Notes under the pieces: model-generated
The model's input: the letters and a program-made list of their open reading frames with translations, nothing else
What the model was told of the DNA's origin: nothing
Databases searched by the model: none
Sequence record: PV660453
Reading direction: 5' to 3' (one strand)
From: Escherichia phage LF82-10
DNA length: 52,895 nt
In this document: positions 33,205 through 52,133 of the stretch, piece after piece
Layout of the letters: each line of letters begins with the position of its first letter
Numbering within the stretch: position 1 is the stretch's first letter
Position numbers and translations under genes: made by a program

Positions 33205-33378
33205 ATGAAAGTTAAATGTATTCGCAATGACTCTAAATCGCTCCCGTTCCATGTGAACCAGTTTTACTCTATCGGGTTCGATCACGGCGGCGGGAACTTC
33301 GAAATTTATGACGGTTGCGGCTCCTGTATTATTGCCCCGCTAAATGGGCATTATCTGGAATTCGTTATCGTCAAATAA
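33205..33378 (+). CDS. hypothetical small protein (MKxKC-family)
   Basis: 57 aa; TAAATG coupling to upstream peptide; N-terminus MKVKCIRN shared with 45397..45762. Confidence 0.4.
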   Translation: MKVKCIRNDSKSLPFHVNQFYSIGFDHGGGNFEIYDGCGSCIIAPLNGHYLEFVIVK

Positions 33379-33404
33379 AGCAACACATTCATCACCTTAC
33401 CTAT

Positions 33405-33445
33405 CGGGAGCCTTTTACGGCTCCCTTTTTTGCTTCTTTTTTATT
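33405..33445 (+). terminator. intrinsic terminator before lysis cassette
   Basis: CGGGAGCC-TTTTAC-GGCTCCC then TTTTTTGCTTCTTTTTT. Confidence 0.6.
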
Positions 33446-33510
33446 CCGAGCCGGGTTACAATCCTTTTACTAACTAAATATTGACATTCAAAGAGTTTAA
33501 GGATCTGATC

Positions 33511-33729
33511 ATGAGGGAAGTAATCAATGCAGTAACCAGCGCCACAGGCGGCGCGTCACTAACCGGAGCGGCTACAGGTCAGTTAGTTATTGCTGGCGCA
33601 ACGTTCGTGCTATTCGTTGGCTTCGGTGTTTGGGGTGCTTACTGGAAATACCAGGACAGCAAAGCAATTCGTGAAGCCCTCAAATCCGGCAATCTGGAAG
33701 AGGCGATCAAACTAAACGGGAAAAAGTAA
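33511..33729 (+). CDS. holin (pinholin-like)
   Basis: 72 aa from ATG 33511; Gly/Ala-rich TM1 and hydrophobic TM2; immediately upstream of SAR endolysin. Confidence 0.6.
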
Positions 33730-33730
33730 C

Positions 33731-34216
33731 ATGAAGAGATTAGTAGCCGGGGCTGCATTCGGTGCAGCTCTCGCCTTAACGCCTCCCCTGGTGGAGCAGG
33801 TTGAAGGCATTCATTACGATCCATACAAAGACATTGCCGGGATCTGGACGGTGTGCGCTGGCATTACCGGGAGCGATGTAGTGCTAGGGAAGCGATATAC
33901 TCAGCGCGAGTGCGATGCGTTGCTTTTCAAGCATATCGAGATCGCAAGGAAGGAAGTTGACAAGCGCGTAAACTATCCGATCCCGGACACGATGCGCGCA
34001 GCAATGTACAGCTTCACGTTTAACGCTGGCACTGGCGCTTTTCGTGGCTCTACAATGCTGAAGCTTATCAATCAGGGCAAGTTGCCTGAGGCATGTAATC
34101 AGCTTTGGAGCTGGACTTACTACACCAACCCGAAGACCGGGAAAAAAGAGAAGTCGAAGGGGTTGAAGAACCGCCGCGCCTTTGAATACAACTACTGCAT
34201 GAAGGAATTAAAATGA
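33731..34216 (+). CDS. SAR endolysin (GH24 lysozyme, phage P21 R-like)
   Basis: 161 aa; N-terminal Gly/Ala-rich signal-anchor-release segment; E-D-T catalytic region [23 protein letters not shown] and [13 protein letters not shown] resemble P21 lysozyme from memory. Confidence 0.85.
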
Positions 34217-34644
34217 AACGCGTAAGCAACTCAATGCTGATCTTCGTAACCATCCTCGTGTTCGTTGCAGTGACTTCGCTATCTGGTTGCTCAACGGCTG
34301 GCGCTCTGACTGGTTTGATCGGCAGCAAGCCGGAAATCTCAGCACAGGCCGGAGCGGAAAACACGAAACAGACGGTTGGCCTAAACAACAAAGTGGATCA
34401 GTCAAGCGAGGTGGAAACCACGATTCGTGATTCAAAGGTTGGAAAGGTTGACAGCTCTAACGGAAAGAAGACCAGCGCATCAAGCATCACGGCTGAAACC
34501 ATCAAGGCCGACAAGATCGAGATTCGCAATAGTGATGGAGAGGCGTTTGGTATTGCGGCTGGTTTCTTCGTCGCTGGTCTGATTGCAGGTTCAAGCGCCG
34601 TTGCATACTTAGCAACGAGACGCAGAAACAACAAAGGAGCCTAA
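34213..34644 (+). CDS. unimolecular spanin (u-spanin)
   Basis: 143 aa; N-terminal lipoprotein signal with lipobox LSGC and C-terminal TM segment ([21 protein letters not shown]) followed by RRRNNKGA; architecture as in T1 gp11. Confidence 0.7.
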
Positions 34645-34660
34645 CGGCTCCTTTTTTATT
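34634..34660. terminator. bidirectional terminator between spanin gene and leftward accessory operon
   Basis: AAAGGAGCC-TAAC-GGCTCC-TTTTTTATT; overlaps both stop codons. Confidence 0.6.
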
Positions 34661-34850
34661 TGTAACGCTTTGCCAGTATCAGAAGTTCACCAGCATCATT
34701 GCACAACGTGTGCTCATCCTTCTTCCCGGCTCGCATCGAACTATTCAGCAGTGACAGCAGGGCGTAATTTAACTCGTCCTCCGTCACCCCTTGAGAGGCG
34801 CAAGCCTCAATAATCGCGTTGATTAGGTTTTGAGCAACCAAAAAGTTCAT
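34656..34850 (-). CDS. hypothetical protein
   Basis: in-frame ATG (MNFLVAQ...) at 34850; 64 aa; last gene of leftward accessory operon. Confidence 0.35.
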   Translation of the reverse strand: MNFLVAQNLINAIIEACASQGVTEDELNYALLSLLNSSMRAGKKDEHTLCNDAGELLILAKRYK

Positions 34851-35169
34851 CGTCGCTGAGCTTGTCAATATTCATCATCTCCCATGTGTAACGATCCTCT
34901 TCACCGCCGTAACAGTTGAAATCAAATTCAAAGGGGCGCTTCTGCGCCCCCTTGCTCCAGTACCAGAGGTTTACGCCGTCAAGGTAGCCCAACCCCATCA
35001 TCCTTGCAACAAACTCCTTAGAAGCGCTTGAGGCGAAGTAACGAGGGGTTACGTTAGCGGCCTTTGCAAGCCGCTCGCACTCGTGATGCTTGAAAATGAA
35101 TTGCGCCAAGTGTTGGCGGTTGAATTTCGTGTAACTCTCACAGAACTTATACAGATCCAGAAGGAACAT
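34807..35169 (-). CDS. hypothetical protein
   Basis: 120 aa; ATG 2 nt after upstream stop. Confidence 0.4.
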   Translation of the reverse strand: MFLLDLYKFCESYTKFNRQHLAQFIFKHHECERLAKAANVTPRYFASSASKEFVARMMGLGYLDGVNLWYWSKGAQKRPFEFDFNCYGGEEDRYTWEMMNIDKLSDDELFGCSKPNQRDY

Positions 35170-35171
35170 GA

Positions 35172-36758
35172 TTACCCCAGCAAGCGTGGATTAACGTAAA
35201 TCTTATCACCGATCAGGCAAGTGTAATTCTTCTCGTCAAGCATCGGCAGCAAGTGATCTTTGATTCGTGTCATTGTTCCGGCCTGGCCTTCGAATGGTCG
35301 AACCTTGCGCGCGGCCTCGTAAAGCGCCCGAAGACCAACAACGCCCTTCCCCTGCTTTCCGCTCTTGATCAGCAAGTCAATAAGCTTGTTCATTTCTGCT
35401 GAATCGCCAGCGTGCCCGGCAGACGACGCGGAAGAAAGATAGGTCTTGCTCAGCTCGTTAAACATGATCACGGCCTCCTGCATTGTGTCAAGCTCAATCT
35501 CTCGACTCTTCGGCGCATTGCTTCCGTTTGGTGAGAACCAGTTACGGATCACATGCAGAACCGACGCGATACGAATCGCCTGTTTATCGAACTTGCCCAG
35601 CGCACCGCGTAACATGGTGTGCGAGTATTTCCCGCCGTCTGCCAAGTGTGGCTCCATCGCCTGGCGTGCGTTGTTAAGGTACTTCATCGCGCTCTTGCTC
35701 ACCGTGAGCTTAACGTCAACCTCACTCATGATGGCGTGTATCAGCTTGAAGTAATCAGCTTTCAGGCCGCCGTCAATAGGCTCGTAAGTTGACTCGCCAT
35801 TGTCATTCACGAAAACACGCTCACCAAGGAATGACTTCTCACGAACCAGCAAGAAACGCTCAGAAACACCGATACCGCGCGCACCTGCATTCATGATCGC
35901 GTTGATTGTCTCGTCCTGCGCGATAACCGAAATACAACCCATAGCCACGAATGACATGTTGTTATCAGCGTTCGCACGAGCGATAGACACGTTCCCTGCA
36001 TCCCATGCTTTCAGCACAAGCTCGCTGTTTGTCTTCTTCGAACCGTCACCATACGTCATGCCCAACAGGCTGTTAACGGATGTCGCTTCGTCCGAGATCA
36101 CAGCGAAGTTGCCTTGACGGTTGTTAATGCGTGCCAAGCCTTCAGGCGTGGTATCTGAAACAGGGAAAACGATATCGCAAAGGCGCTCAAGCTTCTCTTC
36201 AAGATCCTCTTTCTCCTCAAACAGCGAGGCCATTTCAGATGGCGCTTTCTCCTGTTTCATTTCCTTCGCCAGCGCAGACAGTTTGGCGAGAATCTTTTTA
36301 CGCTCACGCTTACGAGCCTCGTTGAGTCGCTCAGTCTCCGCGATCATTGGCGCGATGGATAGCGAGTTGATTGCGGATTTCCCCGTTGATGGTGGCTGAC
36401 TGGTTACAACGTAGAGCGCAGTTGGTTGTTGCGTTCCGTGATAGTCAACCGTGAACCTACCCAGCATGGCGGCAGACACGCAACCTACAAAGTGCATATA
36501 GGCTGAAGACTCAGGGAATTGAACCGATCTCGCGGCGTTGCGTGAGAGCTTGCCGACCACATCACTATCGTTGCCCAGGGAAATAACAGGATATTTATCA
36601 TTACCTGAATCAATCTCTACCGGAGCCTTCCAGAAGGATTGGGATTGACGATATCCATTCGCATTTATGGCAACGCGGAGCGGCGGCAACCCTTCGGCCT
36701 TTGCAACCTCGATCACTTGTTCCGGCGAAAGTTTATCATCATTGAAAATATCGAACAT
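35172..36758 (-). CDS. large P-loop-like protein of unknown function
   Basis: 528 aa; strong SD AAGGAG; deviant Walker A-like TSQPPSTGKS; own box/-10 promoter (36815-36829 / 36786-36791). Confidence 0.5.
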   Translation of the reverse strand: MFDIFNDDKLSPEQVIEVAKAEGLPPLRVAINANGYRQSQSFWKAPVEIDSGNDKYPVISLGNDSDVVGKLSRNAARSVQFPESSAYMHFVGCVSAAMLGRFTVDYHGTQQPTALYVVTSQPPSTGKSAINSLSIAPMIAETERLNEARKRERKKILAKLSALAKEMKQEKAPSEMASLFEEKEDLEEKLERLCDIVFPVSDTTPEGLARINNRQGNFAVISDEATSVNSLLGMTYGDGSKKTNSELVLKAWDAGNVSIARANADNNMSFVAMGCISVIAQDETINAIMNAGARGIGVSERFLLVREKSFLGERVFVNDNGESTYEPIDGGLKADYFKLIHAIMSEVDVKLTVSKSAMKYLNNARQAMEPHLADGGKYSHTMLRGALGKFDKQAIRIASVLHVIRNWFSPNGSNAPKSREIELDTMQEAVIMFNELSKTYLSSASSAGHAGDSAEMNKLIDLLIKSGKQGKGVVGLRALYEAARKVRPFEGQAGTMTRIKDHLLPMLDEKNYTCLIGDKIYVNPRLLG

Positions 36759-36814
36759 GTTAAAAACTCCTTGTTTGGTTGCTCAATGATAGAGCAACCA
36801 ATGATAGTGCGTTT

Positions 36815-36829
36815 TGGCAAAAAGTGCTA
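36815..36829 (-). promoter_or_regulatory. TAGCA-box (TAGCACTTTTTGCCA) upstream of 528-aa gene
   Basis: -10 TATCAT at 36786-36791 (minus). Confidence 0.5.
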
Positions 36830-36833
36830 TTGG

Positions 36834-37250
36834 TTATAAATATTTTGCTTCAAATGTTGTGCCGTCTGCGATCGAAAATCCAACCTCCTCGCGGTAAAGG
36901 TTCCACGGTGAGCCGTCCTCGTCAAAGATAAGCCCGGCAACCCCACCAAGCGCCCTGCCTGAATCCACCTGGTAGCGCTTGCCAACCTTAAAGGATTTCT
37001 TCATTGGGTTCTTGTGATCCAGCGTCATGCACTTCAGGGTTTTAGTTTTCATCTCAACGAATGTTGCAGCAACGACGCCATCCGATGAAACGAAAATATC
37101 ACCGCTTACGCCAACCGAAAGCACGATCTTAGCCTTGCCCTTGCCGATTGAAATGTTGCCTTCATCGTCAACTTTCGCCTTATACATGTGGTTAGCGTTG
37201 AAGGTTTTAGTTAATGACATGGTGCATTTGATCTTGATTGACTTTGACAT
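36834..37250 (-). CDS. hypothetical protein (IKIKCT N-terminus, MKxKC-family)
   Basis: in-frame ATG at 37250 (MSKSIKIKCT...), SD AGGA; 138 aa. Confidence 0.45.
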   Translation of the reverse strand: MSKSIKIKCTMSLTKTFNANHMYKAKVDDEGNISIGKGKAKIVLSVGVSGDIFVSSDGVVAATFVEMKTKTLKCMTLDHKNPMKKSFKVGKRYQVDSGRALGGVAGLIFDEDGSPWNLYREEVGFSIADGTTFEAKYL

Positions 37251-37307
37251 TTTTAGTTCCTCGTTGTTGGTGTGAATGAATAATAACAAAACCCGCCGAA
37301 GCGGGTT

Positions 37308-37322
37308 TAACAAAAAGTGCTA
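37308..37322 (-). promoter_or_regulatory. TAGCA-box (TAGCACTTTTTGTTA)
   Basis: TAG is stop of 37320..38012; followed by hairpin CCCGCTTCGGCGGG and -10 TATTAT 37280-37285 (minus). Confidence 0.55.
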
Positions 37323-38012
37323 TTTGTAACGGTTGTACTGGAAGACGGCGCGAGCGAATCCGCGCGGAGTTAGGGAGCGGAGTTGCTTAGTCTTCGCAGA
37401 CTTTCCGCCGAGGAACTTCCAGCCCCAAAAGAAATGCAAGCCTTCCTCTTTTGGTAATGGTGCCTTCTCTGGCTCGCGGAAACCGTTGCCATGCCAGATG
37501 CAAGTTTTTTTCGTGTAGCCGTCTCGCAGTGGCATTTTGGGGTGCCAGGAGCCTTCACGCGCATCGACGTATTGCCCGAAGTCACGAGGATGGAAATAGA
37601 ATTTAGGCTTGCCCAGGTTTTCCGGCTTTGACATTGCCCCTACCGGGTTTTCAATCATCCACGGGATCTGGTAGCGTTCGCCAATCTCAATGACAACCTT
37701 TGCACACTCAAGCGCATATTTCATTTCGGCGTCGTCTCTCTCGTGCTGCGCGCCAGATTGGGCAAACAGAGTGCAATCCGGGAAGCCAAAAACGATATCA
37801 GGCTTGGGCAACCCCAGGATCTCAGCCTTTGTGATGAAATCCTTATCAATCCACGTATTCACATATCGGATATTTGGGTGATTCATCTTCACGGCGTACT
37901 CGCCATGATTGCCGGAGTCAGCGTTGAAGCATATCACCTGACAACCAACCTCAGCCCAAGGCAATCCCATAATGCCGGAGCCGTCAAACAGCGACCATAC
38001 AACACGCTTCAT
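37320..38012 (-). CDS. short C5-cytosine methyltransferase-like SAM-dependent protein
   Basis: 230 aa; motif I-like LFDGSGIMG, motif IV-like GFPDC (Pro-Cys region), motif VI-like ENPVG; no room for a normal target-recognition domain; stop TAG embedded in box 37308-37322. Confidence 0.5.
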   Translation of the reverse strand: MKRVVWSLFDGSGIMGLPWAEVGCQVICFNADSGNHGEYAVKMNHPNIRYVNTWIDKDFITKAEILGLPKPDIVFGFPDCTLFAQSGAQHERDDAEMKYALECAKVVIEIGERYQIPWMIENPVGAMSKPENLGKPKFYFHPRDFGQYVDAREGSWHPKMPLRDGYTKKTCIWHGNGFREPEKAPLPKEEGLHFFWGWKFLGGKSAKTKQLRSLTPRGFARAVFQYNRYK

Positions 38013-38230
38013 TCTGCCACCTCTTCAAATTTAGCCACGCCCAGGATTACCCATCCTTTATGGTGCATAGTAACCGCTTGCCACTCGAATGAGCCGTTGC
38101 GGCGCTTCTCATCGCCAGTGATCACAGCATCACCGCCAACCTTCACGGCATCGTAGATTTTACCTTTCGTGAAGTGTGGCTTTTGCTTCTTATCGGTTGG
38201 CGAAACAGCGCCAGTACATTTCAGTTTCAT
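38009..38230 (-). CDS. hypothetical small protein (MKLKCT, MKxKC-family)
   Basis: 73 aa; SD AAGGA; stop overlaps next start (ATGA). Confidence 0.45.
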   Translation of the reverse strand: MKLKCTGAVSPTDKKQKPHFTKGKIYDAVKVGGDAVITGDEKRRNGSFEWQAVTMHHKGWVILGVAKFEEVAE

Positions 38231-38239
38231 TGCAGATCC

Positions 38240-38479
38240 TTAAAATGGAATTTCATCTTTGCAAGCTTGACATACTTTCTCAGGCGTGCATGAGCAGTTA
38301 TAAGCGCAAACAGAAACCGGATTATTGCCGATAACCTTGCTTTCTGATTGGTGATCCATTCCACCAAGAGCATCATCAAGCTCTATGCACCCATAGGCAA
38401 CCATCATTGCCCACTCGTCGTTAAGCCCGGCATCCTTAGCCGCGCGGTGGCGGCTCCAGAAGTTATTGACGTTCTTCAT
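38240..38479 (-). CDS. hypothetical Cys-containing small protein
   Basis: in-frame ATG (MKNVNNFW...) with SD GGGAG inside ORF-track 38240..38770; 79 aa. Confidence 0.35.
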   Translation of the reverse strand: MKNVNNFWSRHRAAKDAGLNDEWAMMVAYGCIELDDALGGMDHQSESKVIGNNPVSVCAYNCSCTPEKVCQACKDEIPF

Positions 38480-38705
38480 TCTCGCGCTCCCGATCCTGAT
38501 AGCCGATTTCAACGAGCGCGGAGCCAGCAGCCTCGACGAATTCCATGTTGCAGCACATAAAGAAAAGTTCCTTGTATTGCTGAGGAACATCAAGCGCATC
38601 GATAATCTCTCTTGCGCGATCTTCATCGATATCGTTGCGATATAGCCCGATCTGGCGCGAATGCATACGGAACGTCGCGCCAGCTTCAATCTTGTTGATA
38701 GCCAT
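38463..38705 (-). CDS. hypothetical protein
   Basis: 80 aa; ATG directly after upstream stop codons, SD GGAG. Confidence 0.4.
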   Translation of the reverse strand: MAINKIEAGATFRMHSRQIGLYRNDIDEDRAREIIDALDVPQQYKELFFMCCNMEFVEAAGSALVEIGYQDRERENEERQ

Positions 38706-38708
38706 TTA

Positions 38709-38933
38709 TTAGCTCCAGGAGTTGATAAACATTGCGTTACCTTCAAGAACCTGAATAACTTCAAACTCACTGTATTTCGTCAGGCCGGAACCTGGGGTTT
38801 TGCCAACCACAAAGGAGCCATCACGGCGAGCGGTAATGCAAATCTGAGTCAGGCCGGATGCGCGATCCAATTTCACGCGAACGGAGCCAGTTTTATCCAG
38901 GTGTGCCATGATATTTGCGGTTTTAACTTTCAT
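38709..38933 (-). CDS. hypothetical protein
   Basis: start placed at in-frame ATG (MKVKTANIM...) with SD AAGGAA; downstream of box 38992-39006. Confidence 0.4.
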   Translation of the reverse strand: MKVKTANIMAHLDKTGSVRVKLDRASGLTQICITARRDGSFVVGKTPGSGLTKYSEFEVIQVLEGNAMFINSWS

Positions 38934-38991
38934 CTTCATTTCCTTGTTTGTTGGTGTAACTGCATTATTGCAGATCACGCCGATTTAGTTT

Positions 38992-39006
38992 TAACAAAAA
39001 GTGCTA
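38992..39006 (-). promoter_or_regulatory. TAGCA-box (TAGCACTTTTTGTTA)
   Basis: TAG is stop of 39004..39351; weak -10 AATAAT at 38964-38969 (minus). Confidence 0.5.
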
Positions 39007-39351
39007 TTTGATGCCGTCAAAGGTTGTGTATTTCAGGTTCACACTGACCTTGCCATCATCGAAATGGAAAGCGGGAGCCTCAAAGCGGATGATGTTATTC
39101 ATCGTTCCGGCCTCTACGTAGCGTCGTGCGCCATTTCTCATGGGGATAACGCTGACTCTCTTTGCCGCATCGAATGGATTTGAAACGCCAAAGTATCGAC
39201 ATACAGCGCCGCGCAACGCCTCATCTTCATGCTTATGCATATCACGGATGAGGCGATTTTTAGCGTCCATCATCACATCATAGCTTGCACAGCTAGAGCC
39301 GATGTTGCTATATTCGCGCATTCCGCCAACCTTGAATTGATTGTTGTTCAT
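39004..39351 (-). CDS. hypothetical protein
   Basis: 115 aa; stop TAG embedded in box 38992-39006. Confidence 0.4.
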   Translation of the reverse strand: MNNNQFKVGGMREYSNIGSSCASYDVMMDAKNRLIRDMHKHEDEALRGAVCRYFGVSNPFDAAKRVSVIPMRNGARRYVEAGTMNNIIRFEAPAFHFDDGKVSVNLKYTTFDGIK

Positions 39352-39596
39352 GGTAACTTTACCTCGTTGTATTCACAGAATTCGATTACATATTCACAGC
39401 TATCGGTTGACTCAGTGCCGCGCAGAACATCACAGCCGCCATCACTACCCAAGAAGGCCGGGCATGAAGCGCACAGCGCGCCGCCGCAATTCGATTCGAC
39501 GATTGACATTCCGTTACACCTTCCGCCGCCGAATCGGTGCGGAAAGTCATAGGCGCGGCAGTCGCACGTAACCTGGTGTCGCTTACGCTTTTGCAT
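39348..39596 (-). CDS. cysteine-rich small protein
   Basis: 82 aa with ~10 Cys in CxC / CxxC-like spacing. Confidence 0.4.
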   Translation of the reverse strand: MQKRKRHQVTCDCRAYDFPHRFGGGRCNGMSIVESNCGGALCASCPAFLGSDGGCDVLRGTESTDSCEYVIEFCEYNEVKLP

Positions 39597-39807
39597 CTGC
39601 CAGCCACTTAGCGTATTTTGCGCGCTGATTCATTGAGCAGGTGATCCCCTCTTCCTTCATGTTGCTCGCGCGGTAGATCTCAACCTGTGATTCCGTGTTT
39701 AACTTGCCATCACGAACGTAAACGGAGCCACGGAAGGTGTGGAAAACTACATCTTTCATGGTTGCAGCCAGCGCCAGGAATTCAGACTTTTTCATCATAT
39801 GTGCCAT
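39583..39807 (-). CDS. hypothetical protein
   Basis: 74 aa; downstream of box 39867-39881 and -10 CATAAT. Confidence 0.4.
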   Translation of the reverse strand: MAHMMKKSEFLALAATMKDVVFHTFRGSVYVRDGKLNTESQVEIYRASNMKEEGITCSMNQRAKYAKWLADAKA

Positions 39808-39866
39808 TTGCTTATCTCCGTTTCGTTTTAGTGGTTACATTATGCCGGGTTTCCGCCCGGCACGTT

Positions 39867-39881
39867 TAGCAATTAGTGCTA
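39867..39881 (-). promoter_or_regulatory. TAGCA-box (TAGCACTAATTGCTA)
   Basis: abuts stop of 39882..40088; -10 CATAAT 39839-39844 (minus) after hairpin. Confidence 0.55.
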
Positions 39882-40088
39882 TCAGATTGATTCGATTACC
39901 GCGTGGAAATCTTTGCGGGTTTTGCAGTCTGCCAGGCGTGCATAACATGCTTTAGCGTAGTCAGTATCGGCCTGAGTTTCGAAGATGCCACACTCTTTGG
40001 CGATAGCTTTTAATGTACGCTTTCCGCTTTCGATATCAGCCTTGATGCCGTTGATGGTGTTGATGTCGATGATGTTAAGAGTTGTCAT
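39882..40088 (-). CDS. hypothetical protein
   Basis: 68 aa; downstream of box 40155-40169. Confidence 0.4.
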   Translation of the reverse strand: MTTLNIIDINTINGIKADIESGKRTLKAIAKECGIFETQADTDYAKACYARLADCKTRKDFHAVIESI

Positions 40089-40154
40089 TTTGCTATCCTT
40101 TTGTGTGCTTCGTTTCGATGGAGTAATAATAGCAAAAGCCAGATCGGGAGTTTT

Positions 40155-40169
40155 AGCAAAAAGTGCTAT
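40155..40169 (-). promoter_or_regulatory. TAGCA-box (TAGCACTTTTTGCTA)
   Basis: -10 TATTAT 40126-40131 (minus). Confidence 0.5.
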
Positions 40170-40230
40170 TTTCCCGATCCGGCGCGCGGAACATCTGCCC
40201 CATGGTTTGGGGTGTTAACCAGTCAGAGCG

Positions 40231-40659
40231 TCATGCGTAATAAAGCCCTGATGTTAGTTTCTCAACGTCAACCTTCGCCTTGTACGGCTTATCACACCCA
40301 AGGCACCAGGCTATATAATCAGCGCCATGATCACAAGACGAAATCCAGACGCGCCATTGCTTTGACCCGGCGTGCCAGCGATACAGAACCTTGTAATCCT
40401 CACTATGGAAGTAAACGCCATCATCATCATCGCGGATGATATGCCCACGCTCAAACAGCTTGAAGCGCTTCACGGTTTCGATGATGTAGCGCGCCTGAGG
40501 GTTAGCGCTCCCGGTTTTGTACACGCGCCCGGCTGACATTTTGCCTTCACTATCACTGATGCGAACCATCGTCATTCCACCATCGACGTGCTGACGGGTA
40601 ACAGTGGCACCACGGCTTTTGGCGAACTCCAGCGCCTTGATCAGATGTTTGTTTTTCAC
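40231..40659 (-). CDS. hypothetical protein
   Basis: 142 aa ORF. Confidence 0.4.
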   Translation of the reverse strand: MKNKHLIKALEFAKSRGATVTRQHVDGGMTMVRISDSEGKMSAGRVYKTGSANPQARYIIETVKRFKLFERGHIIRDDDDGVYFHSEDYKVLYRWHAGSKQWRVWISSCDHGADYIAWCLGCDKPYKAKVDVEKLTSGLYYA

Positions 40660-41271: not shown

Positions 41272-41274
41272 AAA

Positions 41275-45099: not shown

Positions 45100-45227
45100 A
45101 CCTAACAACTCTTGAGGCGATCATTGTCGCTACCGCTGGCTTACTCGTTGCTGGCATCATCATTGAGCAAATTGCCTATACCTGGTTGCAGATTGTTAAG
45201 CGCCGGAAGGAGAAAGGTGATGATTAA
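45096..45227 (+). CDS. small hydrophobic peptide (43 aa)
   Basis: ATGA coupling to upstream gene; one TM segment followed by KRRKEK. Confidence 0.3.
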   Translation: MNLTTLEAIIVATAGLLVAGIIIEQIAYTWLQIVKRRKEKGDD

Positions 45228-45324
45228 TGCAATCGGCGCGGCATGTCTTCTTGCTTCCGTCACTGTGGTTGCGGTTGGCGCTGTTTGGCTAATGGCAAAA
45301 ATATTGCGTGAGATTGACGAATAG
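45220..45324 (+). CDS. small hydrophobic peptide (34 aa)
   Basis: ATG overlapping upstream stop; one TM segment; stop TAG embedded in box 45322-45336; alternative is a 70-aa TTG-initiated ORF 45112..45324. Confidence 0.25.
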   Translation: MINAIGAACLLASVTVVAVGAVWLMAKILREIDE

Positions 45325-45336
45325 CACGAATTGCTA
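45322..45336 (+). promoter_or_regulatory. TAGCA-box (TAGCACGAATTGCTA)
   Basis: -10 TATCAT 45359-45364 inside inverted repeat CGGCATG/CATGCCG. Confidence 0.55.
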
Positions 45337-45396
45337 AAACGGCATGGCTCCTGAGTGGTATCATGCCGTTACACCAAACAAACAGGAGTCACCCAA

Positions 45397-45762
45397 ATGA
45401 AAGTTAAATGCATTAGTTCAGACGTTTTGCTTGATGGTTACTACACCCCAGGTAGAGTCTACCGATTAAGGCGAGAAAGGGGCAAAAGCTATAGAACCGT
45501 TAAATCAAACAGAGGCGTTGATCTTGGTGTTATCCACGACCCATTAAAAAGAGGTCGGTTTTTCGTTGCTGGATTTGAACGTTGTGTGTTTGATTCGGCT
45601 CCGCACCGATTCGTGAAGCGCAACCAAAGCGCCGCGCTGGGGCAGATTGAGATCGACTATACGCGATGCAAGCGCAGCATTCGCAATCAGGCTCGCAACA
45701 TCGCAAAAGAGCACTTCTCGTGCGGCAAGCTTGAGAAGATTGCGCGAGGCTATAAGCGATAG
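45397..45762 (+). CDS. hypothetical basic protein (MKVKCI, MKxKC-family)
   Basis: 121 aa from ATG 45397, SD CAGGAG. Confidence 0.45.
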   Translation: MKVKCISSDVLLDGYYTPGRVYRLRRERGKSYRTVKSNRGVDLGVIHDPLKRGRFFVAGFERCVFDSAPHRFVKRNQSAALGQIEIDYTRCKRSIRNQARNIAKEHFSCGKLEKIARGYKR

Positions 45763-45774
45763 CACTTTTTGCTA
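45760..45774 (+). promoter_or_regulatory. TAGCA-box (TAGCACTTTTTGCTA)
   Basis: -10 TATAGT 45797-45802 inside inverted repeat AAGGGCA/TGCCCTT. Confidence 0.55.
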
Positions 45775-45842
45775 AAACTTCCGCAAGGGCATTTGATATA
45801 GTGCCCTTATTGAAGCAGAGCAAACCAATCAGAGGATTCAAC

Positions 45843-46052
45843 ATGGCAATACCAACATTTACCCGTAAGCAGTTTACCGAGTTCTTCCGCCTGGTTAACA
45901 TGAGCGGCAGCCCGCACCAGATGGATCGCATCACTAGCCGCCTTGAAATGCCCAAGTTCGTTGAGGCAGTCGGGCGCAAGAATTGCAATAGCATGTGGGC
46001 GCTGATTAATGGCGGCGTTACACCATCAACCTTAGACCCGGAGATCAAATAA
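45843..46052 (+). CDS. hypothetical protein
   Basis: 69 aa, SD AGAGGA. Confidence 0.4.
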   Translation: MAIPTFTRKQFTEFFRLVNMSGSPHQMDRITSRLEMPKFVEAVGRKNCNSMWALINGGVTPSTLDPEIK

Positions 46053-46417
46053 TGCGCATTCGTTTATTAAACCCGTCAATCTATACCGGAATGGAGCTGA
46101 GCAAATACAACTCAGATCCTATGCACGACGAAAGCAACTACCCGGTTATTGTTGAAGCGTCAGAGAAGGATCACAACGGCTTTGAATTCACAGGCCGGGC
46201 GCATGTAAGCTACAAGGAGCTTGATCGCGTATTCCCATACGGATTCGAGCGCGACAAGTGCGAACCTGGGAAGGGCATTGGCTGGTGGAATAACCCGGTA
46301 AAACGAGACGCTAAAACGCCTCAAATCTCATGGGAGCCAGTATCACCGTTTGACTACTGGAACAAGCTGAAATCATCCCGCCCGGTTGGTGACGTGGTTC
46401 CGGCGGGGTACTTATGA
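46052..46417 (+). CDS. hypothetical protein
   Basis: 121 aa; TAATG coupling. Confidence 0.4.
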   Translation: MRIRLLNPSIYTGMELSKYNSDPMHDESNYPVIVEASEKDHNGFEFTGRAHVSYKELDRVFPYGFERDKCEPGKGIGWWNNPVKRDAKTPQISWEPVSPFDYWNKLKSSRPVGDVVPAGYL

Positions 46418-46665
46418 GAAAATTAACCCGCGATGAGGAGCGTTTTAAATCGTGCCTCAAGAAGTCAAAGCAGAAGGCTATCATCATGGATCGCAACTCA
46501 TCCGGTCAAGCCTTCTGGCATTTCCCGGACGTTGAGCAAACGGGATGGCACCCGGACACTATACGAGATCTCATGCGTGATGATCTTGTTGAGTTCGGGT
46601 TAATGGATAGTGGGCACCCTAACGGACAGCCGCGATACAGTAACGCAAAGTGGATAGGGGGTTGA
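46414..46665 (+). CDS. hypothetical protein
   Basis: 83 aa; ATGA coupling. Confidence 0.4.
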   Translation: MRKLTRDEERFKSCLKKSKQKAIIMDRNSSGQAFWHFPDVEQTGWHPDTIRDLMRDDLVEFGLMDSGHPNGQPRYSNAKWIGG

Positions 46666-46666
46666 T

Positions 46667-46855
46667 ATGCAGATCTACAAATCGCCAGGCGGAGCAAGAT
46701 ATGTCGTTGTTGATGGCGTTGTTTACTGCAAGCCAGCAGATGGAAGCATGGTTTACAGGCCGCGCATGACGGTTGAGCGATATCTTGAGCTTATCGCTGG
46801 CGGTCTTCTGACATTCCATTGCGTTATTCGCCCGGTAATGTTCAAAAAGCACTAA
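46667..46855 (+). CDS. hypothetical protein
   Basis: 62 aa. Confidence 0.35.
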   Translation: MQIYKSPGGARYVVVDGVVYCKPADGSMVYRPRMTVERYLELIAGGLLTFHCVIRPVMFKKH

Positions 46856-46861
46856 TTGCTA
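46847..46861 (+). promoter_or_regulatory. TAGCA-box variant (AAGCACTAATTGCTA)
   Basis: -10 TATAGT 46884-46889 inside inverted repeat AAGAGGCA/TGCCTCTT. Confidence 0.5.
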
Positions 46862-46927
46862 AAACTTGCTAAGAGGCATTTGTTATAGTGCCTCTTGTCG
46901 AGTTAACACAAATACAGAGGATTTGAA

Positions 46928-47632
46928 ATGAGCATTCAACGCTACTACCCTGAAGTGAAGTACACAGTGCGGGAAACTCGCGTTAATATGGCTCCACACG
47001 AGCGCGGAAGCTATGTGACCTATGAATCACACATCGAAGAATTGCGCCGCGTACAGGCCGAATTAGACGCCTTAAAAGCGATGCAAAAAAGCGATTTTTT
47101 CTATCACCTAAAGCCAGTCTTCGAAAAGGCGCTTGAAGAGGCGATTGCTATCGTCGTGAAGCAAGCCAGCCAATCAGTTTTCAAGGTTGACGCTGAGGCG
47201 CTAATTGCTGCTGACGTTGGCCGTTGGATGGAGAAGCACATGAACGAGCGCGCCGGATTTGCAACTGGCAGCCTGTTTGTGGGTGATGTAGAGGTTGATT
47301 TCGACAACAACAAAGTCAAGATCACCGATGCGCTAATCAAGAGCGGCGTTGTGACTGAAAGCGAATTATTCTCTTTCCCTAAGGCACGAAAGAACATTGT
47401 CGTTTGCACAAGCGCCGATGAAGGTAGCGGTTTCACTATTGGAAAGAAATACGCATTCGATCGCAATGAAGGGAACATTATCCGAATCTGCCAGGATGAT
47501 TTTGTTTCAGATCTCGCAGAGGATGATTGCTGGATTGCAAGCCGCCGCCGAAACCTGGTAAGCGGTGAATTCAGATACTTCTTACAGGGGCATACAGAAG
47601 GCAAGCGCGCATCTTTCGAGATCGTTGAATAG
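46928..47632 (+). CDS. hypothetical protein
   Basis: 234 aa; contains internal CT...GKKY motif of the MKxKC family; stop TAG embedded in box. Confidence 0.45.
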   Translation: MSIQRYYPEVKYTVRETRVNMAPHERGSYVTYESHIEELRRVQAELDALKAMQKSDFFYHLKPVFEKALEEAIAIVVKQASQSVFKVDAEALIAADVGRWMEKHMNERAGFATGSLFVGDVEVDFDNNKVKITDALIKSGVVTESELFSFPKARKNIVVCTSADEGSGFTIGKKYAFDRNEGNIIRICQDDFVSDLAEDDCWIASRRRNLVSGEFRYFLQGHTEGKRASFEIVE

Positions 47633-47644
47633 CACGAATTGTTA
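47630..47644 (+). promoter_or_regulatory. TAGCA-box (TAGCACGAATTGTTA)
   Basis: -10 TATCAT 47667-47672 inside inverted repeat GGCATGTG/CATGTGCC. Confidence 0.55.
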
Positions 47645-47702
47645 AACGGGCATGTGTTCCGACTGGTATCATGTGCCAACACAAACAAGCAAGGGGCTTT
47701 AA

Positions 47703-47870
47703 ATGTTCGAAGAAAAGAAACACAGGCCGGAACAAGCTTACTCAAGGGTATCACGCACCGTTAAAGAGCGTAGGCGCTGGGTTAAGTATTTCATGAATCA
47801 AGGCCACACCAGATCGGTTGCGATTGGCCTGGCTAAGTGGGCAACAAACAACTACAACGGGAAAAACTGA
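47703..47870 (+). CDS. hypothetical basic small protein
   Basis: 55 aa; stop overlaps next start; below ORF-track cut-off. Confidence 0.3.
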   Translation: MFEEKKHRPEQAYSRVSRTVKERRRWVKYFMNQGHTRSVAIGLAKWATNNYNGKN

Positions 47871-48502
47871 TGAACTTTCAAATGTACACTATGATCAAGC
47901 ATCACTTACTTACTCATCCAGATCAGCCAGTCTACATCTTCGACTATGACGGCACGCTTTCGGATGGCTCTCACCGACTGGACAAGTTGCCAACAAAAGA
48001 TTTGCACCTCACCGAAAGCTGGGAAGAGTTCAATCGCCTTGCTTCATTCGATGAGCCGATCGAAACAACCATTCAGGTGATGAATTCACTTTATAAGGCT
48101 GGCGCTTTCGTTATCGTGTTAACCGGGCGCGCCGATAGCGTTGTTGAAGAGTCAACACAATGGCTGCATGATGCTGGGGCGAAATATACAGTGATGGTGA
48201 TGCGTGGGCGTGACGACAATCGCAAGGACACGATCATCAAGGAGGAATTCTTGCGCTACATCGGACTTGAGCGAATTACAGCGGCGTGGGATGATAGCCC
48301 AAAAGTGATCGAGCATTTCCGATCGCTGGGCATCACAACCTACCAGGTTTGTGATTATGGCGATAAGACTCACGCGCATCTACAGTCACACGGCGTGAAA
48401 GATGCTGGCGGAGAGTGTGAGCATATTTGGGAGCGTCACAGTATTGGTGACGATTATTATGAATGCTGTGTTTCATGCGGCAGATCAAGAGGCATTAAGT
48501 AA
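47870..48502 (+). CDS. HAD-family phosphatase (T4 Pnk 3'-phosphatase-domain-like)
   Basis: 210 aa; HAD motif I FDYDGTL; later segments (VLTGRAD, RGRDDNRKDTIIKEEF, AWDDSPKVIEHFRSLGITTYQV) resemble the T4 polynucleotide kinase phosphatase domain from memory. Confidence 0.6.
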   Translation: MNFQMYTMIKHHLLTHPDQPVYIFDYDGTLSDGSHRLDKLPTKDLHLTESWEEFNRLASFDEPIETTIQVMNSLYKAGAFVIVLTGRADSVVEESTQWLHDAGAKYTVMVMRGRDDNRKDTIIKEEFLRYIGLERITAAWDDSPKVIEHFRSLGITTYQVCDYGDKTHAHLQSHGVKDAGGECEHIWERHSIGDDYYECCVSCGRSRGIK

Positions 48503-49110
48503 TGGCAACTATCATCATTCTGAATGCGCCGCCGCGCGCCGGGAAAGACACGATCGCGAAAATCATCGACGAGCAATACGGCTTGCCAGTTGTGAGCTTC
48601 AAAACTCCGATGTTCAACATTGCTCGCGGCATCTTGGGCGAAGCGGATTTTAAAGAGTTCATGGCGGTTTACGAAACAGACCGCAAGGACACACAGCCGT
48701 TAAGTATTCTGCATGGCAGCACTTGCCGCGAGTTTATGATCTGGATTAGCGAATCCGTGATTAAGCCTCATTTCGGCAAGAAGCATTTCGGCTGGCTTAT
48801 GGCTGATTTGCTCAGCGAAATGGAGGATGATGTTGATCTCACAATTTGCAGCGATGGCGGGTTCCCGGATGAGGTAGAGGCGTTGATTGACTTCGGGCAC
48901 CGTGTCAAGCTGGTTCGTATGCACCGTGAAGGCTTCGACTTCTCGAAAGATAGCCGTGACTACATCTACCTTTCCGAAGAGTACAAGAGCAAGCCTGGTG
49001 TTGTTGAGTTCGATCTGACATTGCAGGACGGTTGCCCTAATCTGGCTGCTGAGACTATCGCGTCATTGTTCATTGCCCATCATAAACCAGATAACGAGAT
49101 CCCTTGGTAA
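48502..49110 (+). CDS. P-loop kinase (T4 gp1 dNMP-kinase-like)
   Basis: 202 aa; Walker A LNAPPRAGKDT and later ICSDGGFPDEVEA resemble T4 dNMP kinase; start overlaps phosphatase stop (TAATG). Confidence 0.55.
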   Translation: MATIIILNAPPRAGKDTIAKIIDEQYGLPVVSFKTPMFNIARGILGEADFKEFMAVYETDRKDTQPLSILHGSTCREFMIWISESVIKPHFGKKHFGWLMADLLSEMEDDVDLTICSDGGFPDEVEALIDFGHRVKLVRMHREGFDFSKDSRDYIYLSEEYKSKPGVVEFDLTLQDGCPNLAAETIASLFIAHHKPDNEIPW

Positions 49111-49111
49111 A

Positions 49112-49126
49112 TAGCACTTTTTGTTA
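49112..49126 (+). promoter_or_regulatory. TAGCA-box (TAGCACTTTTTGTTA) fused to terminator-like hairpin
   Basis: 41 bp identical (inverted) to 37282-37322; hairpin CCCGCTTCGGCGGG 49129-49142 then TTTTGTTATTC. Confidence 0.5.
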
Positions 49127-49183
49127 AACCCGCTTCGGCGGGTTTTGTTATTCTTGCTTTAACGAAACGAAATGGAGTGAAGA

Positions 49184-49414
49184 ATGAAAACTTTATCAGA
49201 GCTGAAGTCGATCGCGGCTGACTTGCAGGAGCGAATGAAGCCACTAAACCACAAGCTGGAAAACTCGCGCATTACTATAGCCTCAAGAATGTCTATCGAG
49301 TGCTCACTGCGCGAACTTAAAATCATGTGGCATGATGCCATGTGCGACGTTCACGCTCACCCTGAGTACGAAGGTGAGTTTAAATTCCAGAAAGAAAACA
49401 ACCCATACCGATAA
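49184..49414 (+). CDS. hypothetical protein
   Basis: 76 aa. Confidence 0.4.
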   Translation: MKTLSELKSIAADLQERMKPLNHKLENSRITIASRMSIECSLRELKIMWHDAMCDVHAHPEYEGEFKFQKENNPYR

Positions 49415-49424
49415 GGATTCAATA

Positions 49425-49721
49425 ATGAACACTATCAAAAAGTTGACTCCAAACATGGCAACCAAAATCAAGTACGAGATCCCGGAGGATGGCACATTCT
49501 TAGCCGTCTGGACTTATCGCGAGATCCCGTACTCCGGTACTTATCAATGGCGAAACGGCGAGCTTGCCGTGTGGGTTGATGGCGTTGGCTGGGAAATTGC
49601 CGGGCATGGAGCGGCGGAGGACTATTACGATTTCAACTGCCTCGTGTCTATGGCTAGTGGTGAGAATTACGGCGGTGCTTGTCACTTTGTTGCGGTTGTA
49701 GTGGTTGAGGAAACAGCGTGA
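49425..49721 (+). CDS. hypothetical protein
   Basis: 98 aa from in-frame ATG (MNTIKK...). Confidence 0.4.
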   Translation: MNTIKKLTPNMATKIKYEIPEDGTFLAVWTYREIPYSGTYQWRNGELAVWVDGVGWEIAGHGAAEDYYDFNCLVSMASGENYGGACHFVAVVVVEETA

Positions 49722-49891
49722 AGACTTTTATTATTTTCCTAGTTGGCGCTTGCATGGTTAGCGTTTCTGATAACTTCACAGTTTTCGTTGGCGCTGCGAT
49801 GGTGTCGTGGGCTTACTACCGATGCGGAAAGGCTGACGGAATAGCGGAAGGTAAACGCCAGGCGCTGGCATCCGGCACTAAGTTAAAGTAG
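49718..49891 (+). CDS. small membrane protein (GTG start)
   Basis: 57 aa, two hydrophobic segments; GTGA overlap with upstream stop; TAG embedded in box 49889-49903. Confidence 0.25.
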   Translation: MKTFIIFLVGACMVSVSDNFTVFVGAAMVSWAYYRCGKADGIAEGKRQALASGTKLK

Positions 49892-49903
49892 CACGATTTG
49901 TTA
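49889..49903 (+). promoter_or_regulatory. TAGCA-box (TAGCACGATTTGTTA)
   Basis: -10 TGGTATAAT 49923-49931 inside inverted repeat GGGGAT/ATCCCC. Confidence 0.55.
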
Positions 49904-49961
49904 AAAGGGGATTCGTCCTGACTGGTATAATCCCCACATCAACCAAGCAGAGGAAACGATC

Positions 49962-50414
49962 ATGAAATTAGTTTGCACATCATCACGCGTCAAAAGCTTC
50001 ACCGTTGGAAAGAAATATGAAAGCCGCACAGTCGAGCATTACGGAATTGTTACGCACGAGGTGGACGGAGACACCGCTTGCGGCTGGGTGATTAACGATG
50101 GCCTGAGCATTTGCGGAGCTGATCACTCAAACCCAATGGCAACTTTCCGCAAGGATAAGAGCATGATGAAGATGCTTGTTCGCGCATTCGTATTGGTTGC
50201 AAAGGCTCGCGGTTGGGGTGATAGCAAGAGCGGGGCTTACAAATCCTGGAGCGGCACACCTTACAAAAACTCCAGAGATTGGGCGCGAGCTATTGCCTTC
50301 AGCTACGATGTTGGGAGTGTTGCGCGCGAGATAATTGATGAAGATCCTAACGTGAAACTCATCGACCAGGAAGCGGTAAACCTGTTTGCCGAAAACGAGA
50401 TCGACAACTGGTAA
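49962..50414 (+). CDS. hypothetical protein (MKLVCT, MKxKC-family)
   Basis: 150 aa; SD GAGGAA. Confidence 0.45.
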   Translation: MKLVCTSSRVKSFTVGKKYESRTVEHYGIVTHEVDGDTACGWVINDGLSICGADHSNPMATFRKDKSMMKMLVRAFVLVAKARGWGDSKSGAYKSWSGTPYKNSRDWARAIAFSYDVGSVAREIIDEDPNVKLIDQEAVNLFAENEIDNW

Positions 50415-50476
50415 TTTGCGCAAGGCCGTTTATAATAGCGGCCTTACTCAGACAAACCAATCAGAAGGAAATCACC

Positions 50477-50905
50477 ATGAAATTACGTTGCACATTCCTT
50501 GAGCCAGCTTTCGCAAAAGCTCTGGCTGAGTTCTACACCATCGGCAAAACTTACGCCGCATCCATCAAGCCGGGATCAAAGGTTGGCGCTGTGCTGGTGG
50601 AGTCAAACGAAGGCAATGAAGGCGATCAGCTTGCAGCAGTTCCGAGCCGCTCAGGGTTCGAGGTTCAAATTAAGAACCAAATTCCGATCGCAAAGTTCGA
50701 GGTTGTTGGCAAGCGTGCGGTGAAGCTTGTTAAGACTGAGAAGCGCGTAACGCTGAAACTTGATGGCGTGGGGAAATCAGATAAGCGCCGATTCCGCCGT
50801 GTTTGCCGCCAGTATCGAAAGTTGAAATTCATCAACCCTGGATTCTATTATGATCTGGAATCCGATCGCCACATGGCTAAACTTGCGCGACATCACCGCC
50901 GATAG
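50477..50905 (+). CDS. hypothetical basic protein (MKLRCT, MKxKC-family)
   Basis: 142 aa; SD AGAAGGAA. Confidence 0.45.
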   Translation: MKLRCTFLEPAFAKALAEFYTIGKTYAASIKPGSKVGAVLVESNEGNEGDQLAAVPSRSGFEVQIKNQIPIAKFEVVGKRAVKLVKTEKRVTLKLDGVGKSDKRRFRRVCRQYRKLKFINPGFYYDLESDRHMAKLARHHRR

Positions 50906-50917
50906 CACTTTTTGCTA
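50903..50917 (+). promoter_or_regulatory. TAGCA-box (TAGCACTTTTTGCTA)
   Basis: -10 TATAGT 50940-50945 inside inverted repeat CGGGGTT/AACCCCATCG. Confidence 0.55.
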
Positions 50918-50978
50918 AAACTCGAAATCGGGGTTGCGATATAGTAACCCCATCGAAACGCAACGGAGCAAACGAAAA

Positions 50979-51209
50979 ATGAAAAAGTACCCAACTGCGA
51001 TGATTATCCGCACCACTAACCGCGTAGAAGCCGATGCACTCACCCTGGCCGAATGTGGTTTCAAGGTTGGTGATATCATCGAGCTTGACGGATGCTACTG
51101 CGACGGCACAGCAAGTGCAAAAGCGATTCGCGAAGGGCTTGGGATTCGCGTAGGCGATAACGTCAGCCTTGAGGCTTGCGAATATGTTGTTGTGGAGGGT
51201 TCTATATGA
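50979..51209 (+). CDS. hypothetical protein
   Basis: 76 aa from in-frame ATG (MKKYPT...). Confidence 0.4.
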   Translation: MKKYPTAMIIRTTNRVEADALTLAECGFKVGDIIELDGCYCDGTASAKAIREGLGIRVGDNVSLEACEYVVVEGSI

Positions 51210-51511
51210 TTTGGGTTCACACTTACGGCGTGGGCAAGTTCGGCAAGCGCATTATAAAAACCATCCACGAGAGCGCCGAAAGCGCTGAGGACTCACAAAA
51301 AGTCCTTGGTGGAACGGTTGAGCAGTTCATGAGCACAGAAGAGGTTGCGATCGAGAAATACCATATCGCCAACGCTGCGCGCCAGGAAGTTAGCGATATC
51401 ATTGACGACTTCAGCAAGCACGATCCGGCATCCTACGGTTCGCCGGGATGGGATGCGAAAAAGCTGAAGGCGTGCAACATGATCAACCAGATTATCGAAG
51501 GGGATTTTTGA
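51206..51511 (+). CDS. hypothetical protein
   Basis: 101 aa; ATGA coupling. Confidence 0.4.
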   Translation: MIWVHTYGVGKFGKRIIKTIHESAESAEDSQKVLGGTVEQFMSTEEVAIEKYHIANAARQEVSDIIDDFSKHDPASYGSPGWDAKKLKACNMINQIIEGDF

Positions 51512-51745
51512 ATGTTCGGACTGAGTGAGCCGCACTGGAACATAGTTAAGAGCCAGGCGCGAAAGCTGAATGAAGCGGTTAAAGCAATGCCGGAGAAAGA
51601 TCGCAAAAATGACCGCCTGATGATTCAGGTTATCGACAAGCATCACCAGCCGATCGCCACCATCATTGAGCGCTTGAAATTCACTTGGACGGCTGGATAT
51701 TTAGCCGGGCGCGTGGGAAATAAAACTAACGGAGATTATGAGTAA
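51512..51745 (+). CDS. hypothetical protein
   Basis: 77 aa. Confidence 0.4.
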   Translation: MFGLSEPHWNIVKSQARKLNEAVKAMPEKDRKNDRLMIQVIDKHHQPIATIIERLKFTWTAGYLAGRVGNKTNGDYE

Positions 51746-51927
51746 TGGCAGGATTTGACAGCACGAAAAAAGACGCTACGCAAGAAGAGTGGAAGGAACA
51801 GCTTGATTGCATCGTCGAACTAAACGGCTACAACCCTGATTTCATCCCTGATTCATGGCTTGATGCATATGATGGCGGCGCTGAAGTGGCTGATTTCTTT
51901 TACGATAACTATGACTCGGAGGAATAA
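51745..51927 (+). CDS. highly acidic small protein
   Basis: 60 aa, ~30% Asp/Glu with aromatic residues; TAATG coupling. Confidence 0.4.
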   Translation: MAGFDSTKKDATQEEWKEQLDCIVELNGYNPDFIPDSWLDAYDGGAEVADFFYDNYDSEE

Positions 51928-52133
51928 TGTTTAAGCATCTGCCAAAGAAAGGCGAAATCATTCGCTGTGATTCAGTAGTTGGAGCCGCGCCGTTTATGGT
52001 TGGCGTTGAGTACACCGTTGAACATGTTGATCGCAAAGTTGGTCACATCTACGTTTACGGTGACGAAGGCAACCTCGAGGCGATCGACTACCCGCAAGAC
52101 GCTGTACACGGAAAGTTTTCAAAAGTTGATTGA
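51927..52133 (+). CDS. hypothetical protein
   Basis: 68 aa; TAATG coupling. Confidence 0.4.
   Translation: MFKHLPKKGEIIRCDSVVGAAPFMVGVEYTVEHVDRKVGHIYVYGDEGNLEAIDYPQDAVHGKFSKVD

Follow-up and report, generated by a model that had tools for sequence, protein, structure and literature searches.

An SH3-like small β-barrel probably repeated in eight small proteins from the early arms of the T1-like Escherichia phage LF82-10

The DNA of Escherichia phage LF82-10 (sequence record PV660453), analysed here as one window of 52,895 nucleotides (nt), shows between positions 33205 and 52133 a long succession of short open reading frames (ORFs), several of which encode proteins with a similar N-terminal pattern: K-x-K-C-[TI], a variable spacer and [FY]-x-[VI]-G-K-x-Y. 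The original prediction, made from the sequence, was that these proteins share a small fold diversified by duplication, and the question raised by the locus is whether they constitute a family and what such a family would do. The prediction of a shared fold is supported by three results: the separation of eight proteins from all others of the window in profile comparisons, the presence of an internal tandem repeat in one of them, and the models of two members, which show the same rare six-stranded barrel. The reading preferred here, with a probability of roughly 0.6, is that eight genes encode nine copies of one SH3-like barrel, which was spread by duplication and fusion and acts as an early binding adaptor.

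The nine copies are all inside region 33205-52133. Genes are named by their lower coordinate, and "barrel" denotes the predicted domain. Gene 33205 (33205..33378, plus strand), located between the exonuclease and holin genes, encodes a standalone barrel of 57 amino acids (aa), which is a member of the Pfam family DUF7244 (PF23896; E=5e-27, 94.2 bits for a gathering cut-off of 27, full length 1-57 of 57). Two genes are on the minus strand: 36834 (36834..37250, 138 aa) contains two tandem barrels, domain A (37044-37241) and domain B (36837-37046), and 38009 (38009..38230, 73 aa) encodes a standalone barrel and shows a 4-base overlap with the start of the methyltransferase gene. The remaining five are on the plus strand. 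Protein 45397 (45397..45762, 121 aa) shows an N-terminal barrel (45397-45624) with a C-terminal extension; in 46928 (46928..47632, 234 aa) a helical or coiled-coil N-terminal part is followed by a C-terminal barrel (47393-47629); 49962 (49962..50414, 150 aa) is a fusion of an N-terminal barrel (49962-50162) and a C-terminal helical domain; 50477 (50477..50905, 142 aa) is a fusion of an N-terminal barrel (50477-50716) and a basic C-terminal tail (DKRRFRRVCRQY...); and 51927 (51927..52133, 68 aa) is a standalone barrel (domain 51951-52130). This distribution, with one tandem pair and fusions to a helical domain, a basic tail and a coiled-coil part, supports an origin of the copies by duplication and module shuffling, and the eight proteins are presumably of common descent.

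Seven of these proteins had been listed before; each was correct, as was its coordinate, and all seven show the N-terminal motif. Protein 51927 and a second copy within 36834 are additional to that list, and in 36834 the better motif copy is the C-terminal repeat (KTLKCM...FKVGKRY). The seven proteins other than 33205 (36834, 38009, 45397, 46928, 49962, 50477 and 51927) show no match to DUF7244 at E ≤1, that is, not even below the cut-off, and no Pfam family above its own cut-off. Phage T1 contains five copies, in gp7 (tandem), gp14, gp58 and gp68, and the partial loci of other T1-like phages contain one to six copies each. Protein 51927 is the orthologue of T1 gp58, and both 50477 and T1 gp68 add a basic tail. 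Among the related loci, the family alignment shows the fusion of barrel and helical domain only in the window and in phage NBD2. The helical C-terminal domain of 49962 (50163-50414, phrog_8758) is encoded by a stand-alone gene of about 83-92 aa in about 21 related T1-like loci.

The pattern [KR][LIVM]xC[TIVM] was found in six of the 54 window proteins (0.63 expected from shuffles) and [FY]xxG[KR]xY also in six of the 54 (0.17 expected); four proteins contain both patterns in order, a combination present in 0 of 2000 shuffles. Because the regular expressions were written only after the data had been inspected, these counts, which are far beyond the shuffles, describe an enrichment and carry no formal P-value.

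For the comparison of profiles, 55 related T1-like loci were fetched, one family alignment was built for each window protein (n=54), and the 54 family profiles were compared all against all with hhalign (1431 comparisons). The best of the 1431 pairs was 38009-50477 (66%), and the pairs 38009-49962 (27%), 49962-50477 (25%) and 33205-36834 (25%) were also among the top ones. Eleven of the 15 top pairs are within the eight-protein set, to which 28 of the 1431 pairs belong (hypergeometric 2e-17). The non-family pairs among these 15 are two that align hydrophobic segments, 43817-44485, and 38009-43232; protein 43232 was later rejected as a member (hhalign 3.5%, E of 0.06-0.75 with hidden Markov models, HMMs).

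Leave-one-family-out HMMs, run against 9832 ORFs, most of them spurious, recovered 36834 (E=2e-7), 50477 (1.4e-5), 49962 (1.8e-4) and 38009 (1.9e-4). An iterated HMM seeded on these four families recruited 33205 (3.9e-5) and 45397 (1.8e-4) at round 4 and 51927 (E=2.5e-5) at round 9, each of the three having scored E <1e-3 before its inclusion; 46928 was marginal, the C-terminus of its NBD2 orthologue was recruited, and no further ORF of the window joined or scored in this search. Compared by hhalign with a profile of non-window sequences, the eight proteins gave 82-98.5% and the other 46 at most 3.5%, a clean separation in agreement with the HMMs, although the template includes orthologues of the eight, so these values measure separation and not independence. 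Within this range 45397 shows 86%, 51927 shows 97% with its orthologues in the template, and 46928, the weakest member, shows 82% with a template that contains its NBD2 orthologue. Proteins 40656, 38709 and 50979, candidates picked by eye, failed this comparison.

Word-indexed searches of large databases returned six close orthologues for 38009 and nine for 49962, and a large-database search with an alignment as query returned mostly two T1-like subfamilies. An exhaustive profile search against 1.84 billion representatives gave 51 proteins at E ≤1e-3. Two of them have four to six copies, and others have two or three in tandem, in some cases with coiled coils behind. The very large, repetitive proteins P0072, P0074-P0076, P0083 and P0087 were set aside, with their sequences unread, as composition-driven false positives, because only profile positions ~28-48, a D-rich "DEDGD" turn, were matched. 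Another match, P0078, passes the Pfam cut-offs of DUF7244 (3.9e-9) and DUF6501, and the family profile is therefore tied to a curated family. Most related members from other loci show no Pfam family above the cut-off.

The fold was predicted with AlphaFold2 (AF2). The model of 38009 (73 aa), from a superfamily alignment of 31 sequences, has a predicted local distance difference test score (pLDDT) of 78.6 and shows six strands with a β1-β2 loop of 16 residues. The model of 36834 (138 aa), from an independent alignment of 11 sequences of its own family (pLDDT 84.4, predicted template modelling score 0.76), shows two domains of six strands each, with identical strand order. Both modelled members thus gave the same barrel and not unrelated folds, and the domain is probably a cytoplasmic, six-stranded SH3-like β-barrel of about 60-70 residues. 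On these models K-x-K-C-[TI] corresponds to β1, the variable spacer to the β1-β2 loop, and [FY]-x-x-G-K-x-Y opens β2. Besides β1-β2, the family alignments have in common a short closing segment, h-F-E-x-h, which maps to the closing strand β6, and the domain length is likewise shared across the copies.

The best Protein Data Bank (PDB) match of both models, and the same single match, is Gp54 of Escherichia phage Bas11. Canonical SH3 and SH3-like barrels (eukaryotic SH3, FeoA, PsaE and the C-terminal domain of DtxR) have five strands and a 3-10 helix, whereas the models show six strands; their scores were well below the Gp54 match and they show no sequence relation. In BFVD, the model of a 132-aa protein of phage ESCO41, probably the orthologue of 50477 by its length and locus, matched the 38009 model with a probability of 1.0 and a template modelling score of 0.65. 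This fold search returned only uncharacterised phage proteins, including a 210-aa match from NBD2, and therefore gave no functional lead.

In its crystal structure (PDB 9AXB), Gp54 forms a barrel of six strands, in which the β1-β2 loop is prominent and the topology is called very rare; it binds CapRel (CapRel-SJ46) directly and activates it, through a partial unfolding in which strands β1 and β6 come away from the barrel and a new strand forms from the β1-β2 loop (PMC11578894). Gp54 is a non-essential trigger of the CapRel defence system, its authors suggest that it may inhibit another defence, and even close homologues from other phages fail to trigger CapRel (PMC11578894). The predicted domains of the window share with Gp54 the small six-stranded β-barrel and the long β1-β2 loop, but Gp54 is without the K-x-K-C and G-K-x-Y signatures. 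No ORF of the window was found by phmmer with a Gp54-family ORF as query, the family members of the window do not match the Pfam model PF25180 ("Phage antiviral trigger protein Gp54"), which was present in the library used, and the family profile matched no PDB sequence, 9axb included. Homology to Gp54 by sequence is not supported; fold similarity and gene adjacency remain. Gp54-family ORFs (PF25180) are present in six of the 55 related loci but absent from the window. Three T1-like loci have such a gene directly upstream of, and overlapping, a gene encoding a K-x-K-C barrel member of about equal size, all on the minus strand (L012 4840-5243, L008 4865-5370 and L009 3719-4170), and the two neighbours show no mutual sequence similarity.

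Several results weigh against a single family of barrel adaptors. No pair of proteins from the region rose above noise when all were compared with one another by BLASTP, and pairwise similarity is therefore unable to carry the family claim; iterative searches from single window proteins across the 55 loci did not join any two window paralogues. The leave-one-family-out HMMs missed 33205, 45397, 51927 and the C-terminus of 46928 (E 0.16-1.6, with 0.16 for both 45397 and 51927), and 46928 was never significant by HMM alone (E 0.01-1.6). When everything up to the invariant Tyr was removed, the remaining ~40 residues showed no cross-family signal (E 18-640); because there is no signal outside β1-β2, the sequence support comes from the motif that defined the set. 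The AF2 models cover two of the eight proteins, the 38009 model was built from an alignment that mixes families, and Gp54 compared with the family gave less than 1% in hhalign.

If the barrel family is accepted, the eight scattered genes would encode early-expressed binding adaptors. Each adaptor would use its divergent loops and surface to dock on a target macromolecule of its own, from the host or the phage, either alone or delivering a fused module. Docking would serve host takeover or counter-defence, and the same property would expose the adaptors to immune sensing, as with Gp54 of Bas11 and CapRel. Adaptors are favoured because small SH3-like barrels are binding modules and the copies vary mainly in loop length and surface, because the copies occur alone, in tandem or fused in small-gene units of the early arms, and because Gp54, which both models match best in the PDB, binds a protein directly. 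On these grounds the copies are presumed to be expressed early and to bind.

It is unlikely that the same barrels instead bind nucleic acids, as small β-barrels of the Sm, KOW or Tudor-like kind, and regulate transcription or translation of the phage or its host. The basic-tailed members would fit nucleic-acid binding especially, but the weak matches concerned are generic to the fold, most copies are without a basic tail, the Pfam scan found no known nucleic-acid-binding motif, and Gp54, the sole characterised protein with the fold, binds protein.

Somewhat less probable still is that the barrels are SH3b-like, cell-wall-binding lysis auxiliaries that tune the binding of the endolysin to peptidoglycan, as a study of phage KanT1 proposed for its DUF7244 protein. 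That protein was described as a standalone SH3 (Pfam SH3 clan; modelled as SH3) with a proposed auxiliary role in lysis (PMC13164509). DUF7244 was found in 188 of 522 Drexlerviridae, always adjoining the lysis cassette (Eremina et al. 2026; PMC13164509), with a conserved position between exonuclease and holin, and endolysins of Gram-positive phages use SH3b domains for cell-wall binding (PMC13164509). Gene 33205, a true DUF7244 member at this very position, agrees with the proposal. However, seven of the eight genes belong to other transcription units, at distances of 3.5-19 kb from the lysis genes and with both strands represented, and the eight sequences show no signal peptide or membrane segment on inspection, with no dedicated predictor run. 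With the pinholin and signal-arrest-release endolysin system named in the KanT1 study (PMC13164509), a cytoplasmic protein would presumably reach the peptidoglycan only after lysis. Moreover, 33205 itself is separated from the holin gene by a terminator-like hairpin with a T-run at 33406-33425 (plus strand), an element that bears on the co-transcription of the "lysis-module SH3" with the lysis genes. Neither fusion or immediate linkage to an endolysin nor an export signal or exported enzyme, the features of an SH3b lysis module, was found. The "exclusive" linkage to lysis (PMC13164509) can be ascribed to the DUF7244 search, which at E ≤1e-5 misses divergent paralogues, and the KanT1 paper makes no mention of paralogues or of Gp54 (PMC13164509). 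The other copies share the β1-β2 signature of 33205 and are linked to it by the iterative HMM, but these seven are not beside lysis genes and several are tandem or fused. Their relation to DUF7244 is at superfamily level only, and the published role in lysis cannot be carried over to these seven.

That the motif is a recurrent β-hairpin pattern of unrelated small proteins is very improbable and largely excluded: the negative BLAST, the lack of signal outside β1-β2 and a set chosen by eye for the motif would agree with it, but shuffles never reproduced the combined motif, E-values of 2e-7 to 2e-4 were obtained with the leave-one-family-out HMMs among about 9800 ORFs that are for the most part spurious, the members have domain length and the closing F-E-x-h strand in common, and two independent models share a rare fold and a single PDB match, with the 46 other proteins at ≤3.5% in the profile comparison.

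The family of barrel adaptors is in part known already, since 33205 is catalogued as DUF7244 and the fold has one solved representative. The literature search did not find the combination of 4-9 copies per T1-like genome recognised as belonging to one group, the Gp54-barrel match and module shuffling. The CapRel and KanT1 studies each treated one such protein alone, and the present result connects both. A wider proposal is tentative, and its truth doubtful: the Gp54/DUF7244-like barrel might be a diversifying multi-copy scaffold of the Drexlerviridae (present 4-9 times per genome, singly, in tandem or in fusions), a library of binders against host or defence proteins, with Gp54 and the "lysis-module SH3" as two branches of one superfamily. 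The KanT1 lysis assignment arose since the DUF7244 HMM found the protein only beside the lysis module; if Gp54 and DUF7244 do share a multi-copy, shuffled superfamily, this assignment needs re-examination and the native role of Gp54 becomes approachable through many paralogues. Partner screens and assays on defence panels could start from a compact set of genes, eight in LF82-10 and four in T1, in a phage group that is tractable.

Region 33205-52133 shows 100% identity to Escherichia phage LF82-11 (PV660454) and to three sibling isolates, all phages of E. coli LF82 of about 53 kb. The sequence of PV660454 is 84 bases longer than the window; positions 1-19000 of the window are collinear with it one to one and position 33205 corresponds to 33289, and since the mapping shifts from one-to-one to +84, an 84-bp indel must fall between 19,000 and 33,205. 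The nearest relatives are the T1-like phages NBD2, KLB19 and HazelMika, T1 being more distant (Drexlerviridae). The region contains 50 annotated coding sequences and one missed ORF, 51 genes in total, with a median of 80 aa and a coding density of 90%; 31 of the 51 encode proteins of ≤100 aa, and there are 13 four-base and six one-base start/stop overlaps, in keeping with its description as about 50 short, tightly coupled ORFs. The 30 region proteins scanned against Pfam and PHROG match only families of domains of unknown function (DUF) or of "unknown function", and the annotation names only seven functions (holin, endolysin, spanin, helicase, C5-methyltransferase, polynucleotide kinase and deoxynucleoside monophosphate kinase).

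According to the deposited annotation, the holin, endolysin and spanin genes are located at 33511-34644, followed by a minus-strand block with the helicase and C5-methyltransferase genes (34656-41514), a divergent intergenic region of 709 bp (41515-42223) and a plus-strand block with the polynucleotide kinase and deoxynucleoside monophosphate kinase genes (42224-52133). The layout is syntenic with phage T1, in which the same two blocks occupy the two physical ends of the genome, and the GC content of the region is the same as that of the remaining window. With its GC content undifferentiated and the same two blocks present in T1, the region is what a T1-like genome normally carries as its lysis, replication and early arm; base composition and synteny likewise rule out a horizontally acquired island. 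The term "accessory island" is not supported for a stretch that contains the core lysis cassette, a helicase, a methyltransferase and nucleotide kinases and corresponds to the standard T1 early arms. Its small-gene content is mosaic: the best non-identical relatives cover 18-34% of the region at about 75% identity, whereas a 19-kb piece of the structural arm, far less mosaic, is covered to 77-86%. The intergenic region 41515-42223 shows an AT-rich core and a (GATGT)n run, is between outward-facing early blocks at the position of T1's physical genome ends, and may hold packaging or replication signals.

Other small proteins of the arm agree with the earlier description of lipoprotein, membrane-peptide and highly acidic members. 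Inspection of the translations shows a lipobox, LAGC, in the 106-aa protein of gene 44095-44415 (plus strand), and membrane peptides in 33100, 45096, 45220 and 49718; acidic proteins by computation are 51745, with an isoelectric point of 4.05, 40868, 41275 and 43020. The predicted lipoprotein 44095 belongs to the early block on the plus strand; all its PHROG matches are to families of unknown function, and by analogy with Cor or Llp it might be a candidate for superinfection exclusion. On the minus strand, an ORF at 39348-39596 encodes a cysteine-rich protein of 82 aa and fills a stretch of 231 bp that is unannotated in PV660454; it shows a 4-base overlap with the start of the next gene, matches phrog_5016 end to end (E=3e-35) and is probably a missed gene. 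The proteins of 43817-44095 and 44485-45099, both on the plus strand, match phrog_1972 and show 12% in their mutual hhalign, and may represent another case of paralogous small domains in the arm, separate from the barrels.

The transcription units of the region are preceded by a TAGCA box, which had been described as a promoter carried by each unit. The box is real: the window contains 21 copies at ≤3 mismatches for 0.31 expected, 16 of them in the region, and there is one per unit of one to six genes and not one per gene. It shows the layout TAGCAC-nnn-TTG(C/T)TAAA, a spacer, a TATAAT-like hexamer and a leader of ~30 nt with a ribosome-binding site, and all copies are oriented with the downstream gene, 70-77 nt 5' of its ATG. 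The box at 49889..49905 (plus strand; TAGCACGATTTGTTAAA) begins 73 nt ahead of the ATG of 49962, at a TAG that is also the stop codon of the preceding gene. Further boxes are at 33028-33044, 43744-43760 and 49112-49128 on the plus strand and at 37306-37322 and 41572-41588 on the minus strand, and outside the region there are boxes at 6027 (minus strand), 25923, 27462, 30024 and 31017. This element was described for phage TLS as a 21-nt direct repeat, aaATAGCACnnnTTGnTAAAA, noted also in T1 and Rtp, whose role was left among promoter element, UP element and operator (PMC11447400). The two agree in consensus, intergenic position, transcription direction and distance (about 72-76 nt before start codons), and sub-types can be told by the middle, which is TTT, GAA/GAT or TAA in the window and AAA, TTT or GAA in TLS (PMC11447400). 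Phage T1 contains 21 copies of the same element. Two details go unmentioned in the available part of the TLS account (PMC11447400): most boxes of the window begin at the TAG stop of the upstream gene, and each box has a private inverted repeat between the -35-like TTGnTA and the -10-like hexamer. Because these private inverted repeats are partly terminator-like, they suggest that the boxes are combined terminator-promoter junctions. Some of the inverted repeats, at 37306 and 49112 (CCCGCTTCGGCGGGTTTTGTT), resemble full intrinsic terminators.

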